Source of the DNA: an uncultured Clostridia bacterium
Lineage (GTDB): Bacteria > Bacillota > Clostridia > Christensenellales > CAG-314
Direction: 5' to 3'
DNA length: 64,000 nucleotides
Assembly (NCBI GenBank): GCA_947629985.1
Contig: CANRFV010000007.1
Coordinates: forward strand, 3,439 to 67,438
Part shown: positions 51,846 to 56,993 of the stretch, in pieces
Layout: every line of letters begins with the position of its first letter
Position numbering within the stretch: the stretch's first letter is position 1
Notes under the pieces: generated by a model
Told to the model about the DNA's origin: nothing
Seen by the model: the letters and a program-made list of their open reading frames with translations, nothing else
The model's database searches: none
Made by a program: the position numbers and the translations under genes

Positions 51846-52405
51846 GTTAGGTGCGGCATACTCGTTGCAGATTATTTTGCAGTGGATACACTCGCTCGGC
51901 GGGTTACAAGGTTGGGTTTAATTAGTACTACTTGTTGCGTGTATGCACTTGTTGCAGATTATTTTGAGTCGCGACGCACTCGGCTCCGAGTGAGAACAAG
52001 GTAGTATTTTAATTAAAACTTTTTGTTGATAGTGTAAATGCAACAGCACTCGCGCCATAAAAAATAATATTTTGCGCGGCATACTCGTTGCAGATTATTT
52101 TGCAGTGGATACACTCGCTCAGCGGGATTACAAGGTTGGGTTTAATTAGTACTACTTGTTGCGTGTATGCACTTGTTGCAGATTATTTTGAGTTGCGACG
52201 CACTCGGCTCCAAGTGAGAACAAGGTAGTATTTTAATTAAAAACTTGTTTGTTGATTGTATGAATGCAACAGCGCTCGCACTTTAAGCAATAAAGATATA
52301 ATGCGGCAGCGCACTCGTTGCAGATTGTTTTGCCGTAAACACACTCGCGTTGCGAGATTACAATGTTGGGGTTAATTGGGACTGCTTGTTGCTCGTATAA
52401 ATTTG
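51846..52405 (+). repeat. Tandem array of ~2.5 copies of a ~225-bp unit
   Basis: Units start at 51853, 52076 and 52303; ACTYGTTGCAGATTRTTTTG at 51860, 51947, 52083, 52171, 52313. Confidence 0.9.
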
Positions 52406-52590: not shown

Positions 52591-52679
52591 TATTTAATTG
52601 TTAATGTCAAGTGTTTGAAAACCAACGATGAGAGAACCGTACACAGCAAAAACTTAACAGCAATATCATCGAAATTCGC

Positions 52680-52708
52680 TTGACAGTATGTTTTAATTAT
52701 GCTAACAT
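52680..52708 (+). promoter_or_regulatory. Promoter of metNIQ leader
   Basis: TTGACA-17 bp-TAACAT with TG extension. Confidence 0.75.
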
Positions 52709-52737
52709 TGAGAGCAAGAAAAAGGCAAGAAAAAATT

Positions 52738-52821
52738 ATGTTGCAAATAAAATTCGCAAATCAAATAATGTGCATGTGCAAGAACCGAGCAAAGAAGCGC
52801 GGCTTTTGTGTTATGCTTTGA
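52738..52821 (+). CDS. Putative Met/Cys-rich leader peptide (27 aa)
   Basis: MLQIKFANQIMCMCKNRAKKRGFCVML*; ATG-TGC-ATG-TGC at 52768-52779. Confidence 0.6.
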   Translation: MLQIKFANQIMCMCKNRAKKRGFCVML

Positions 52822-52880
52822 CAAGCGACCAAAAACAACTTCTTCGCTCGGACTTTTACAGTCCGGGCGATTTTTTATTT
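52785..52880 (+). terminator. Attenuator: antiterminator (52785-52797/52839-52851) overlapping terminator (52844-52880)
   Basis: CCGAGCAAAGAAG pairs 12/13 with CTTCTTCGCTCGG; TCGCTCGGACT-TTTAC-AGTCCGGGCGA-TTTTTTATTT. Confidence 0.75.
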
Positions 52881-52895
52881 CGGGAGTAAAAACAA

Positions 52896-53882
52896 ATGAT
52901 AGAATTCAGACATTTGAGAAAAGAATATCCCGCTGCAAACGGGACGCTCGTCGCGCTTGACGACATAAACCTTTCGATAGAAAACGGAGTCATATACGGC
53001 ATAATAGGTTTGTCGGGAGCGGGCAAAAGCACTTTGGTGCGGTGCATCAATTTGCTTGAACGTCCTACGGCGGGCGAGATCGTAATCGACGGAGAAGATC
53101 TCGTCAAGGCGAGCGGCAAGCGGTTGCGAGAGATACGTCGAAATATCGGCATGATATTTCAAGGCTTCAATCTTTTGGAACAGCGCACAGTGGAAGCGAA
53201 CGTGCGATTTCCGCTCGAACTTGTCAAAACGCCCAAGGAACAAGCAAATCGGCGCATAGACGAATTGCTTAGGTTAGTGGGGTTGCAAGACAAAGCAAAG
53301 GCATATCCGTCGCAAATTTCGGGCGGACAAAAGCAACGCGTTGCCATAGCGCGAGCGCTCGCCACCGGTCCCAAATATCTGCTTTGCGACGAGGCAACGA
53401 GTGCGCTCGACCCCAATACGACCAATTCCATTTTGGAACTGCTCAAAGACATAAATCGCAAGTTGGGCGTTACGATAGTTATAATAACGCACGAGATGAA
53501 GGTGGTGGAGAGCATTTGTTCGTATGTGGCGGTAATAGACAAAAGCAAGATAGTCGAGCACGGCAAAGTGGCGGAACTGTTTTCGTGCCCCAAGTCGGAA
53601 ATAGCCAAAGAACTGATTTTGCCGGGGCTTATTCGTTCCGAAAGTACGCCGGGCAACAAACTGAGATTGATTTTCGACGGGAGCGTAACCGACAAGCCGC
53701 TCATATCCGCGCTTTCGCGGGAGTGCGGCGTAGAAGTCAACATTTTGTTTGCTGACACTAAGACGATCGACGGCAAGATATTCGGGCATATGGTTATAGC
53801 AATGCCGAATGACGATCGTGCCGTAGCCGAAATAAAATCATTTTTAGACAAAAACGGCGTTACATACAAGGAGGGAATATGA
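52896..53882 (+). CDS. metN: Methionine ABC transporter ATPase
   Basis: GLSGAGKS, ISGGQKQR, CDEATSALDP, C-terminal NIL-like domain. Confidence 0.93.
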   Translation: MIEFRHLRKEYPAANGTLVALDDINLSIENGVIYGIIGLSGAGKSTLVRCINLLERPTAGEIVIDGEDLVKASGKRLREIRRNIGMIFQGFNLLEQRTVEANVRFPLELVKTPKEQANRRIDELLRLVGLQDKAKAYPSQISGGQKQRVAIARALATGPKYLLCDEATSALDPNTTNSILELLKDINRKLGVTIVIITHEMKVVESICSYVAVIDKSKIVEHGKVAELFSCPKSEIAKELILPGLIRSESTPGNKLRLIFDGSVTDKPLISALSRECGVEVNILFADTKTIDGKIFGHMVIAMPNDDRAVAEIKSFLDKNGVTYKEGI

Positions 53883-54577
53883 GCGAATTACTAAAACAAC
53901 TGTTTCAAAGCGGAGAAATTTACAAGCATGCCTGGATCACGATATGGACGACCTTACTAAGCACATTTATCGCTTATCTTATAGGCTTGCCGATAGGCGT
54001 TCTGCTCAATGTAACAGACAAAGAAGGACTTCGTCCTTGCGTACCGTTAAACAGAGCGCTCGGGCTTATCGTCAATATTTTGCGAAGCATGCCCTTTGTA
54101 ATACTGATGGTGGCGTTTTTGCCGGTGGCGAAGTTCTTCGTAGGGTCAAGCACGGGCAACGCGGCAATGCTTGTTATGTTGATAATCGCGGCGGCTCCGT
54201 ATGTGGCTCGTCTTGTGGAGTCGTCTTTGAAAGAAGTGGACAGGGGCGTAATAGAAGCCGCCCGTTCGATGGGCGCGAGCGACCTTCAAATAATATTCAA
54301 AGTTTTCTTGCCTGAAGCCAAACCGTCCCTGATAGTGGGCGCGGTAATATCGACGGTAACGATACTCGGATATTCGGCTATGGCAAGCACGATAGGCGGC
54401 GACGGACTAGGCAAGGTGGCGATAATTTACGGACACCAAAGGTTCAACGAAGATATAATATGGGTTTGCGTGGCATTTACGGTTGTTATAGTGCAGATAA
54501 TTCAGGAAGTGGGAATATTTATAGCGCACAAAACGGACAAACGTATCAGAAAAATCAAAAAAAGGAGAGTTTTATAA
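53879..54577 (+). CDS. metI: Methionine ABC transporter permease
   Basis: NILRSMPFVIL, EAARSMGA, GYSAMA. Confidence 0.93.
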   Translation: MSELLKQLFQSGEIYKHAWITIWTTLLSTFIAYLIGLPIGVLLNVTDKEGLRPCVPLNRALGLIVNILRSMPFVILMVAFLPVAKFFVGSSTGNAAMLVMLIIAAAPYVARLVESSLKEVDRGVIEAARSMGASDLQIIFKVFLPEAKPSLIVGAVISTVTILGYSAMASTIGGDGLGKVAIIYGHQRFNEDIIWVCVAFTVVIVQIIQEVGIFIAHKTDKRIRKIKKRRVL

Positions 54578-54578
54578 A

Positions 54579-55418
54579 ATGAAAAAATTATTATTGACAT
54601 TACTCGGCATATCGCTTGTATTTGCGTTTTCATTAGGGGCGACGGCTTGTAACGTCGGCACTCCCGACAAGACAATTGTGGTGGGCGCAAGTTCCACTCC
54701 CCACGCCGAGATACTCGAAGCGATTCGCGAAGACTTGCGTAACGAAGGATTCGAACTGGATATTCGCATTTACGACGATTACGTGCTTCCCAACAAGTCG
54801 CTCGAAGACGGCGATCTTGACGCGAATTACTTCCAGCATACGCCTTATCTCGACGATTTCAATGCCAAAAACGGCACTCATATCGTTTCGGCGGGTAAGA
54901 TCCATTACGAACCGTTTGGAGTGTACGGCAAAAACGTAACAAAAGCGGACTTCGAGACTACCAAGACCGGACGCACCATATTTATTCCCGGCGACGGCTC
55001 CAACTGCACTCGAGCACTCTTCGTGCTTGCAGACAACGGCTATCTGACGCTTAAAGACGGCGTTTCGGCGTCCGACACGCTCAGCGACAAGGATATCGCC
55101 GACAACAAAGGAAACACTGTGATCCTTGTCGAAGCGTCCAATATTCCCGCACAACTCAACAATTCAAGCGACGGTACCATAGCGGTAATAAACGGCAATT
55201 ATGCGCTCGAAGCGGGGCTTAAAATATCCGACGCGCTTGCGGTGGAAAATGCGTCGGGCGAGGCGGCTCAGTTGTATGCCAACATTGTAGCCGTAAAGCA
55301 AGGCAACGAAAACAGCGCAAAGACAAAGGCCCTTTTAAAAGTGCTCAAAACCAAAAAAGTTTACGACTTTATTACCGAGCATTATAACGGAGCCGTTTCG
55401 CCTTCGTTTACCCTTTAA
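54579..55418 (+). CDS. metQ: Methionine ABC substrate-binding lipoprotein (MetQ/NlpA)
   Basis: PHAEILE, DYVLPN, DANYFQHTPYL, INGNYA. Confidence 0.93.
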   Translation: MKKLLLTLLGISLVFAFSLGATACNVGTPDKTIVVGASSTPHAEILEAIREDLRNEGFELDIRIYDDYVLPNKSLEDGDLDANYFQHTPYLDDFNAKNGTHIVSAGKIHYEPFGVYGKNVTKADFETTKTGRTIFIPGDGSNCTRALFVLADNGYLTLKDGVSASDTLSDKDIADNKGNTVILVEASNIPAQLNNSSDGTIAVINGNYALEAGLKISDALAVENASGEAAQLYANIVAVKQGNENSAKTKALLKVLKTKKVYDFITEHYNGAVSPSFTL

Positions 55419-55544: not shown

Positions 55545-56516
55545 TCAGTTTTCCCAAGCGATTTGTTGGGCGGTACGCAGGGGGTAACTTGTCAATTGGG
55601 TGCCGTCCAAGTCGGTTTTGTGCATATTTACGGCGGTAATTTGTTGATTGTTGTAGGTCGTGTAATAGTAAATGCCTTTGTCGGTGTTGCAACAGGACGA
55701 GTAGATGGTGTATTCGTAGCCGTGTTCTACGCTACAAGCGCCTTTTTGTTGCGCCACGCTGCCCAAAATATGGAAAAATTGCGCCACGCTCGACGTTTCG
55801 TCGCCGTCGCACACCGAGTTGTTGAGCACAAATGCCGCTCGCACAAAGCGCGACGCCGACGACAGATCGCCCGGCAACCCAAATCCGCCCGCGCCGCGGC
55901 TGTACGCCGTTATGTCGATATTCGGGGCAAAGCGGTTGTTTGCAATTTGGCGCGTTGCGCCCATATAGTGCGACAGGTTAAGCAAATGGAAGTCAAACGT
56001 GGGGCTGTTGGTCATTACGTTTACGGGGTTGTCGTAAACGGCAAGTCCGTTGACGGTGCTTTCCACAACGATAGACTGCGTTTTGTCTGCAATATGCCAA
56101 TGCAGCGGCGACGCGGGCAGTTGATCGCTGAAATTTATTGCCGCAATGTTTACATTGCGCAACAGTTCGCGCGCTTGTTGTACGGTGGCGCATTGCGCAA
56201 GTATCCAAGGGATAAATTCAAACGGAGCGACGTTTATTTTGTCCGCCGCGGGCGGCGTGTAGTGTGCAAATTGCGGAAAGTTAAGTCCCGCAACGCTAAG
56301 CCCCTTTTCGTTGGTAGCGTCGTAGTACAGCGGATAGTTTTGCTGAACAAACGCCATACCTATCATTGCGTAGTGCGTTTGTATTGTGTCCGCCATGCGC
56401 AGGGCAAGCGGATAGTTGCGCGGCGTTACGGTAACCGTTTCGTTGTAACTGAATTCGTAATCGAGATTGCGCCCGAAATAATGGTCGGCGCTGTTAAATG
56501 ATGCAGATGTACACAT
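55545..56516 (-). CDS. bsh: Choloylglycine hydrolase (bile salt hydrolase/penicillin V acylase family)
   Basis: N-terminal nucleophile MCT..., YFGRNLDYE, NEKGL, MTNSP, GLPGDLSSASRFVRA. Confidence 0.88.
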   Translation of the reverse strand: MCTSASFNSADHYFGRNLDYEFSYNETVTVTPRNYPLALRMADTIQTHYAMIGMAFVQQNYPLYYDATNEKGLSVAGLNFPQFAHYTPPAADKINVAPFEFIPWILAQCATVQQARELLRNVNIAAINFSDQLPASPLHWHIADKTQSIVVESTVNGLAVYDNPVNVMTNSPTFDFHLLNLSHYMGATRQIANNRFAPNIDITAYSRGAGGFGLPGDLSSASRFVRAAFVLNNSVCDGDETSSVAQFFHILGSVAQQKGACSVEHGYEYTIYSSCCNTDKGIYYYTTYNNQQITAVNMHKTDLDGTQLTSYPLRTAQQIAWEN

Positions 56517-56993
56517 TTTTGTAACCGTCCTTGTGTTAATGTCGGTAAGTATTATAACCTGTTTTGCGGATATTTGCAATACCCGATTTGTACAACGGCA
56601 ATTTCGTAATGAGATTTGTATGCGCGCGGTATATCGGTGCGGCAAGGCGTCCATGCGCGTTTATCATTGCGCGCAGCGTAACATTGCCGTCAGATGTGCG
56701 TCGTTACAGCGCACACGTCTGTTTTGTCGCAACTTCGTACAGTGTGCAGTCTCGCCCACCCCGCGCAAAAAACTCACAAGGGCAAACGCTTTGGCGGCCG
56801 CCGCAATGGTTGCAGTCAGTTATGCGCCTGCCCCGCGCGAAAAACATACTATCTCGCCCGAATGGGACAAGGCGTCGCTTCCCGTCTCGCCTGCGCCCGC
56901 CCGCGCAAAAATATATTTGTTGCAAAACGTGCATACTACCGATATTTGTGATACAATACAGGCAAGCGATTTGTGCCTGTAACAGGGGGCAAA

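Follow-up and report, generated by a model that had tools for sequence, protein, structure and literature searches.

A candidate methionine-codon leader-peptide attenuator upstream of metNIQ in an uncultured Clostridia bacterium

Introduction

Textbook accounts of transcription attenuation concern the amino acids Trp, His, Leu, Thr, Phe and Ile/Val, and the control of methionine genes is taught in terms of S-box, T-box, MetJ or MET-box. Here we describe the leader of the methionine import operon metNIQ in a stretch of 64,000 nucleotides (nt) of DNA from an uncultured member of the Clostridia. The whole stretch is called the window throughout, and coordinates refer to its forward (+) strand, on which all features described below are located unless indicated otherwise. 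An earlier reading, made from the bare sequence, had proposed that a short upstream open reading frame (uORF) with Met and Cys codons controls metNIQ by attenuation and senses both sulfur amino acids. According to our analysis the leader is, with a probability of roughly 0.78, a ribosome-mediated leader-peptide transcription attenuator that senses charged elongator Met-tRNA.

The leader can be compared with several described systems. Like the enterobacterial leaders trpL, hisL, leuL, thrL and pheL it has a short ORF, translated in those systems and predicted to be so here, with codons of the regulated amino acid. As in the trpL/hisL class, clamp, antiterminator and terminator are mutually exclusive and the default state would be off, and as in trpL there are two sensor codons in the window. 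In contrast to the enterobacterial attenuators the amino acid sensed would be methionine and the leader stems from an uncultured clostridial bacterium. The geometry differs as well: the antiterminator strand of the window lies inside the ORF, 27–33 nt 5’ of the stop codon, where a terminating ribosome would leave it unmasked, and the 3’ arm of the clamp belongs to the translated sequence and is ended by the stop codon. No sequence relation to enterobacterial attenuators was seen in the Rfam scan of the window.

Published methionine leader peptides, from Streptomyces and Campylobacter, are predictions in the sections cited here. In Streptomyces lividans TK24 a leader peptide named metL was predicted upstream of metNIQ, its basis in the cited section being RNA-seq annotation only (PMC8079986). 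It shares with the window the operon, the proposal of attenuation and alternating Met/Cys codons near the end of the ORF (...ARCMCRRMCAF). Unlike the leader in the window it is actinobacterial and leaderless and, in the words of its authors in that section, has no clear intrinsic terminator (PMC8079986). In Campylobacter jejuni MetL, located upstream of metBA, was proposed as a leader peptide (PMC3847290); the excerpted part of a later report lists initiation-site peaks for MetL and a Met-rich CJsORF19 ahead of a MetQ-like gene (bioRxiv 10.1101/2022.11.09.515450). Both are small ORFs rich in Met codons ahead of methionine genes, as in the window, but they are epsilonproteobacterial and the genes controlled are others. 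Sensing of a sulfur amino acid via the codons of an upstream small ORF (sORF) is also described, in the part cited, for the polycysteine attenuators of mycobacteria (bioRxiv 10.1101/834739). These have Cys runs on leaderless mRNA, whereas in our case Met dominates, the uORF is preceded by an mRNA leader and Cys is dispensable within the clade.

Among the Firmicutes, leader peptides are rare according to the cited passage of Naville and Gautheret (2010, PMC2965389), where a histidine leader peptide is described that replaces a T-box before hisS and hisZ in bacilli. It likewise represents a Firmicutes leader peptide that substitutes for a T-box at one gene; amino acid, genes and host lineage are different. 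A full-text literature search found no methionine leader peptide described for Clostridia or other Firmicutes. The Met T-box itself (RF00230) resembles our leader in its metN-proximal position, which it occupies in six congeneric species and at 4 of 77 metagenomic loci, in its signal, the charging of tRNA-Met, and in its output, terminator versus antiterminator. In contrast to the leader of the window it binds uncharged tRNA directly and without translation.

Organization of the metN leader

The leader is preceded by a sigma-70-type promoter. Promoter scoring identified a -35 hexamer TTGACA (52680–52685) and, after a spacer of 17 nt, an extended -10 element TG-n-TAACAT (52700–52708, TAACAT at 52703–52708); 10 of 12 positions match and TG lies ahead of the -10 box. 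This promoter is the best of seven promoter-like sites between 51400 and 53100 (shuffles 3.2 ± 1.8), and by eye a TTGAC-17 nt-TAnAAT-like -10 arrangement can be read at the equivalent place in the leaders of relatives. Transcription would start at about 52715.

Downstream, a weak Shine-Dalgarno sequence (AAGG, 52722–52725) is found 12 nt 5’ of the start codon of the uORF. The uORF MLQIKFANQIMCMCKNRAKKRGFCVML, taken from the ORF list and the alignment, has 27 codons and a TGA (52738–52821, TGA at 52819–52821). Its putative sensor codons ATG TGC ATG TGC (Met11, Cys12, Met13 and Cys14, 52768–52779) are located within the 5’ arm of a hairpin P1 (52761–52821, arms 52761–52790 and 52797–52821), the candidate clamp or anti-antiterminator, which was obtained by minimum free energy folding. 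In this fold the upper part of P1 contains the antiterminator strand “c”, CCGAGCAAAGAAG (52785–52797), corresponding to uORF codons 16–20. Strand c is complementary to strand “h”, CTTCTTCGCTCGG (52839–52851), at 12 of 13 positions with a single A.C mismatch, and h overlaps the 5’ arm of an intrinsic terminator. The terminator hairpin (52844–52870), detected by terminator scan and folding, has 11 bp including 7 G-C pairs, a 5-nt loop and a free energy of -18.1 kcal/mol. It is followed by the T-tract TTTTTTATTT (52871–52880, T6 after the stem) and by the Shine-Dalgarno sequence GGGAG of metN (52882–52886). P1, the antiterminator duplex and the terminator exclude each other. For the antiterminated state an inner hairpin with the stop codon in its loop is predicted at 52804–52834, and an equivalent hairpin is predicted in relatives too. 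Promoter, uORF with its Met-Cys-Met-Cys codons, the 12/13 pairing with the left arm of the terminator and the terminator just ahead of the metN ribosome-binding site had all been described in the sequence-only reading, and our coordinates agree with it.

A search of sequencing runs for the locus yielded DNA contigs and no RNA run. On contigs from close strains we found no change across 52738–52795. A52730G creates AAGGA 6 nt ahead of the uORF start codon, and C52863T in the terminator stem retains a G.U pair. Contigs of runs X5, X7 and X10 have one additional T in the T-tract.

Known RNA families account for none of these elements. At gathering thresholds Rfam 15 gave no match across the whole window, and at E values up to 10 nothing credible was found between 51400 and 53000, the best match being an unrelated small RNA with 22 bits against a threshold of 99 bits. 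The covariance model of the S-adenosylmethionine (SAM)-I riboswitch (S-box, RF00162) did not match in the window either at its gathering threshold or at E values up to 10. Nor did the T-box model (RF00230), which in an equal search finds the T-boxes at sister loci with 93.6–112.3 bits. The earlier statement that the leader shows neither a SAM riboswitch nor a T-box thus stands against Rfam. Elsewhere in the same genome the sole SAM-I riboswitch (64.9 bits, G000:C4:114056-114172) lies on another contig ahead of metK, a gene identified by three S-adenosylmethionine synthetase domains, and three T-box-like matches (67–87 bits, under the threshold of 93 bits) are all located away from the metNIQ leader. 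No Rfam family was found for the leaders at 15 scanned leader-bearing loci. A search for a second copy of the leader in the own genome found none.

Conservation of the reading frame and the Met codons

A DNA search with the leader against 60 relatives returned matches at noise level only (best E 0.0028), three of which (G028, G014, G032) were later placed just 5’ of metN. Orthologues were located via MetN, for which 14 of 46 other genomes of the genus gave a match at E ≤1e-60. Upstream of metN an alignable leader was present in seven of them (G032, G028, G065, G008, G014, G010, G070) and a T-box in six; the contig of the remaining one ends within the apparent 3’ part of a leader. From the window and the seven genus members we built a covariance model, R1, and searched 151 genomes of the order. 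This identified one new true leader, in a genome from another family (G133), and a second match (G165), which was rejected as a terminator behind a coding region. A pattern scan over the genomes of 185,579 species gave 14 matches, 11 of them ahead of a metN homologue according to tblastn and three of those new (L070, L075, L079); L068, L071 and L077 were discarded as chance matches inside coding-like sequence. The pattern was anchored on Met codons, and the scan was therefore left out of the counts of Met-codon conservation. The resulting set A comprises 12 homologous leaders, the window and 11 other genomes.

In all 12 leaders an ATG near a Shine-Dalgarno sequence is in frame with a run of two to four Met codons. 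The Shine-Dalgarno sites of the relatives (GAGG, GGAG or AAGGA) are clear in 11 of 11, and the uORFs have 20–27 codons, mostly 26 or 27 with one each of 20 and 23. The Met run is found at a fixed place of the uORF and reads KMVMCMC, KMVMRMC, KMVMRMS or KMMMRM in the relatives and QIMCMC in the window; the conserved form is M-x-M-x-M or MMMRM, which corresponds to I-M-C-M in the window. Over the 12 leaders 46 ATG triplets are in frame versus 2 in the other two frames combined. Met accounts for 15.6% of the codons in set A and for a modest 3 of 26 non-start codons in the window. Cys positions, in contrast, are changed to Arg, Ser, Phe or Leu, and half of the uORFs (6 of 12) have no Cys codon at all. 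Conservation of Met/Cys codons in relatives, which had been suggested as a check, therefore holds for Met and fails for Cys, and the core of the proposal, a leader-peptide attenuator of metNIQ, is borne out by uORF, Shine-Dalgarno sequence, frame and Met codons being kept throughout. As far as sequence comparison can tell, this pattern agrees better with Met codons acting as the sensor than with a defined peptide or a motif of RNA alone.

An RNA-only switch, that is a riboswitch or a protein- or tRNA-binding leader which responds to a ligand while the reading frame is incidental, is improbable in our view. The most conserved nucleotides (ATGNNNATGYGNATG, CCCGAGC and GCGCGGG) are all located in paired parts of P1, so that a constraint on the RNA could suffice for them, and the conservation of S-R-A and R-G in the peptide is a direct consequence of strands c and d. 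It would leave unexplained, however, that all 12 leaders have a Shine-Dalgarno sequence and an in-frame start, that with G032 as reference each indel of the window inside the uORF is 3 nt long, and that codons 2–7 vary freely in sequence while the frame stays open. Moreover, P1 is a plain hairpin without a conserved internal-loop pocket, and no Rfam family matches.

Still less probable is arrest by the nascent peptide of the TnaC/SpeFL kind, in which free methionine or SAM would be the signal, recognized by the peptide within the tunnel of the ribosome, in place of tRNA charging read by the codons. Leu-Lys precedes the Met run in 8 of 12 leaders, with Leu encoded by four different codons (CTC, CTT, CTA, TTG), which hints at selection on the level of the amino acid. 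Yet the single frameshifting indel, a 1-nt deletion in G008 located 3’ of the Met run, rewrites and shortens the tail of the peptide while the element is kept, and across the wider family described below the peptides are highly variable with the exception of Met. Arrest at high methionine would also have to trigger termination, which requires a geometry unlike the one observed.

As a separate observation, a small 5’ hairpin that is missing from the window is found in six close relatives (L040–L045) downstream of the -10 box, just ahead of the Shine-Dalgarno sequence of the uORF. By eye its arms differ between species and remain complementary (for example CCGAG/CTCGG, CCGA/TCGG, CCAAA/TTTGG).

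Conservation of the RNA pairings

In the consensus fold of the leaders the long hairpin P1 precedes the terminator. Met run and antiterminator strand are both located in the 5’ arm of P1, and the remainder of the ORF makes up the 3’ arm. Over the 12 sequences 89.2% of the cells in P1 and terminator are paired and seven pairs are changed on both sides, values reached in 0 of 500 shuffles, while slid alignments are 25–50% paired. Four of the compensatory pairs belong to the terminator. Covarying stems, another check named beforehand, are thus present in P1 and terminator.

The nine pairs of the antiterminator core are paired in 86.7% of the cells in the 12 sequences versus 15–54% when slid. In L070 both strands are altered in concert, with CTCCCGGACA facing TGTCCGGGAG. 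Outside the core the spacer of each species is complementary to its own hairpin loop. Duplexes between own partners reach -23.5 kcal/mol versus -19.5 kcal/mol for swapped partners (permutation p = 0.00035). Before the 3’ arm of the terminator is transcribed, folding predicts upstream pairing of the 5’ arm in all 12 leaders (P 0.49–1.00).

The free energies calculated for the window are -17.6 kcal/mol for P1, -19.8 kcal/mol for the extended antiterminator duplex and -18.1 kcal/mol for the terminator. Masking the footprint of a ribosome whose A site contains Met11 or Met13 weakens P1 from -17.3 to -7.5 kcal/mol, and the local hairpin that remains when the base of P1 is covered has -6.4 to -7.5 kcal/mol. 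A mask on the Met codons of the run weakens P1 in 11 of the 12 leaders, i.e. in all those having P1.

A wider family of Met-rich leaders and exchange with T-boxes

We also analyzed a metagenomic sample of 80 loci with 57–63% identity to the MetN of the window, which were picked blind to their upstream content; 77 had enough upstream sequence. At least five in-frame ATG in one open frame were present in 70 of the 77 upstream regions versus 30 of 3850 shuffles (0.8%). The other seven loci comprise four with a T-box and three without anything recognizable. In 29 representatives of Met-rich clusters, with peptides such as MSIRRSDNMMMGMMRMMFMCMMMRAQNCSLAS and MKQLFTTAMMMPMCMRSMCMFSHTQNSARFVS, Met makes up 28.4% and Cys 10.3% of the codons, and no uORF lacks Cys. 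A terminator is present in all 41 leaders examined. Model R1 gave four weak matches on the 80 loci (E 0.32–0.91), all at the leader position; it is too specific for the wider family.

Counted by frame (0/+1/+2), the 41 uORFs contain 290, 8 and 6 ATG triplets, a distribution into which some bias is built since the frame was picked as the ATG-densest one. This asymmetry, and the retention of Met codons in the wider family despite a changing RNA sequence, speak further against a switch made of RNA only. With respect to the sequence-only reading, sensing of both sulfur amino acids is supported for Met; for Cys it is unsupported in the nearest clade, though Cys is enriched in the 29 Met-rich leaders. 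Cys codons may serve as a second input in many members of the family and are not conserved in the clade of the window.

Some of the peptides are predicted by gene callers, and the exact peptide of L084 is found on at least 1000 contigs, “hypothetical protein” being the one source name attached to it; the peptide of the window was not found in the same collection. In public collections such short uORFs are unnamed or merely “hypothetical protein”. One could therefore think of a functional Met/Cys-rich micro-protein, for example a metal-binding or membrane-active one, that is co-transcribed with metNIQ across an ordinary leaky terminator. The prediction of longer relatives by gene callers and the abundance of the L084 peptide are in its favor, and Met- and Cys-rich motifs can bind Cu(I). 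We nevertheless rate it as very improbable, because it is the Met and Cys content alone that is conserved and not the sequence, because the uORF in every case overlaps the pairing partner of the terminator 5’ arm, and because sister species have T-boxes at the equivalent place.

Six species of the same genus have a T-box ahead of metN in place of the leader. Rfam confirmed the metN T-boxes in 5 of 5 motif-bearing loci tested (L047, L049, L052, L149, L151), including 3 of 3 genus members tested, and the specifier, the loop triplet directly ahead of the conserved purine, is AUG in both alignments shown. In the sister species the operon is therefore under control of tRNA-Met charging. The exchange is the strongest indirect argument on what the leader of the window senses.

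In a quick maximum-likelihood tree of MetN the window and its six nearest relatives form a clade with a support of 100. It is nested in a larger clade (support 98), 29 of whose 39 rows have Met-rich leaders, and the Met-poor form of the window is thus derived. The labels leader-A, leader-B and T-box require at least four changes on the tree. A broader picture can be drawn from these data: the window would be a derived member of a large, undescribed class of Met/Cys-codon attenuators that acts as the principal regulator of methionine import among uncultured gut Clostridia, has been swapped with Met T-boxes at least two times, has here the form of a Met-poor “clamp” in which the ribosome melts a translated hairpin, and is a two-input sulfur sensor in most members. 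For this picture as a whole we consider the chances to be even. If such leaders are functional, Met-tRNA sensing through the ribosome is widespread in a major group of apparently methionine-auxotrophic gut anaerobes, T-box and leader peptide can be compared as two sensors of one signal within one genus, and the leader offers a simple regulatory part responsive to methionine supply.

Three further observations were made on the family. More divergent contigs of run X9 covering the 52600–53000 region have other N-terminal codons ahead of an identical ATG TGC ATG TGC, so further variants of the Met-poor form exist in gut metagenomes. Leaders of the KMMMRM type (L048, L075, L078, L079) align with the type of the window and are detected by R1, but their MetN proteins cluster with the MetN of the T-box species of the genus (support 100) and apart from L039–L045, the group of the window; the explanation is either transfer of the leader from one operon to another or an artefact of long branches in the tree. 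In L110 a Met-rich leader with terminator is located 267 nt upstream of metN with additional sequence in between, while the distance is 62–131 nt in 28 of the other 29 Met-rich loci and 245 nt in L154. The MetN proteins of L110 and L108 are identical.

Proposed mechanism and points that weigh against it

Taken for the window alone, the estimates of chance are moderate, and it is conservation in relatives that carries the argument. The fold of the leader has z = -2.63, with 3 of 200 shuffles folding equally well. The antiterminator duplex (-18.9 kcal/mol) compares with -12.8 ± 2.5 kcal/mol in dinucleotide shuffles of the uORF end, 43 of 2000 of which reach it, and at least four in-frame ATG occur in 4.4% (169 of 3850) of shuffled upstream regions, which were metagenomic ones and not shuffles of the window. 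An accidental short ORF beside a terminator that insulates metNIQ from upstream transcription would agree with such modest figures, but since 11 other genomes and 70 of 77 related loci share the element and a dedicated promoter lies directly upstream, this is the least probable of the explanations considered.

For the leader-peptide attenuator we propose the following course of events, in which uORF translation, stalling, kinetics and the response to methionine are inferred from the arrangement of the elements. Transcription would start at the promoter described above, and the leader ORF would be translated during its synthesis. With no ribosome on the Met codons, either because methionine is plentiful or because the ORF is not translated, P1 (52761–52821) would form and sequester 52785–52797. 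The terminator (52844–52870) with its T-tract could then fold, and most transcripts would stop before metN. When charged Met-tRNA is scarce, a ribosome would pause with its A site at Met11 or Met13 and cover the 5’ arm of P1. P1 would be opened, leaving the weak local hairpin alone (-6 to -7 kcal/mol). The freed strand 52785–52797 would pair with 52839–52851 as soon as this emerges from the polymerase, and with the 5’ arm of the terminator captured RNA polymerase would continue into metNIQ.

The locus thus has a leader ORF with a ribosome-binding site, enrichment of Met codons, a terminator, an antiterminator and a clamp that contains the sensor. What is not found is a stop codon that places the terminating ribosome over the antiterminator strand. 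In 11 of the 12 leaders of set A the distance between strand and stop codon is 20–41 nt; the stop codon closes the 3’ arm of P1 in the window and lies a few nt beyond the arm in G032. The classical placement, in which a ribosome at the stop codon masks the antiterminator, is seen in L070 within set A and in most of the 29 Met-rich leaders, where the partner of the 5’ arm of the terminator is mostly located within about 20 nt of the stop codon. We regard the missing stop-codon masking as a difference of variant and not of principle.

Several results nevertheless weigh against this interpretation. In equilibrium folds computed with ribosome masks the terminator of the window persists in all states (terminator probability, Pterm, 0.94–0.96), and in 7 of the 12 leaders the antiterminator is retained although a ribosome occupies the stop codon (Pterm ≤0.08). 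L070 is the only one that folds like a textbook attenuator, with a Pterm of 0.00 in the stalled state and 0.87 at the stop. That stalling frees the antiterminator, as had been assumed beforehand, is thus agreed with by the weakening of P1 under ribosome masks and disagreed with by a terminator that persists at equilibrium; the masks miss the switch because the geometry differs from the classical layout. A terminating ribosome would not cover the antiterminator strand, which is 27–33 nt 5’ of the stop codon in the window and 27–41 nt in its group except for L070 and G008. Being too far from the stop, the strand requires for the off state either a quick refolding of P1 or a ribosome between both strands.

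The evidence on pairing has thin places, too. In the antiterminator core two pairs are changed on both sides, both owing to L070 alone, and 99 of 500 shuffles reach its covariation score; there are just two covarying pairs because the core is so conserved. A crude duplex test showed own partners to be little better than swapped ones in the 29 Met-rich leaders (mean z -0.79 for all 41), a weak test in that the terminator-side segment cut off part of the pairing. The window itself is the weakest member: its sensor run has no more than two Met codons, a third Met follows late in the uORF, and the Shine-Dalgarno sequence of the uORF is poor (AAGG, 12 nt from the ATG). Finally, a shortage of methionine also restricts the charging of initiator tRNA, and the coupling of transcription and translation is loose in at least Bacillus subtilis.

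The metNIQ operon and its surroundings

The operon downstream of the leader consists of genes for an ABC (ATP-binding cassette) ATPase, a permease and a substrate-binding lipoprotein. All three have their best NCBIfam matches below the respective cut-offs: metN (52896–53882) with TIGR02314 MetN at 372.5 bits (equivalog cut-off 499.7), metI (53879–54577) with NF008049 MetI at 183.7 bits (cut-off 212) and metQ (54579–55418) with NF008285 at 120 bits (cut-off 374) and TIGR00363 at 116 bits. Domains of MetE, MetH activation and homocysteine methyltransferase (PF01717, PF02965, PF02574) were not found in the assembly, which is 93% complete; as controls, these methionine-synthase domains were detected in 7–9 of 14 reference genomes. 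Their absence suggests methionine auxotrophy. Since no methionine-synthase domain was found, the organism probably depends on imported methionine, and the metNIQ importer is probably essential.

Between rplQ and the metN leader there are three tandem units of about 225 bp (51853–52405), in each of which a T-run follows a small hairpin. They belong to a dispersed repeat with 57 matches in the same genome and no Rfam match. On the other side of the operon a gene for a choloylglycine (bile-salt) hydrolase (55545–56654, - strand; NCBIfam NF038245, 468 bits, above the cut-off of 350 bits) is convergent with metQ.

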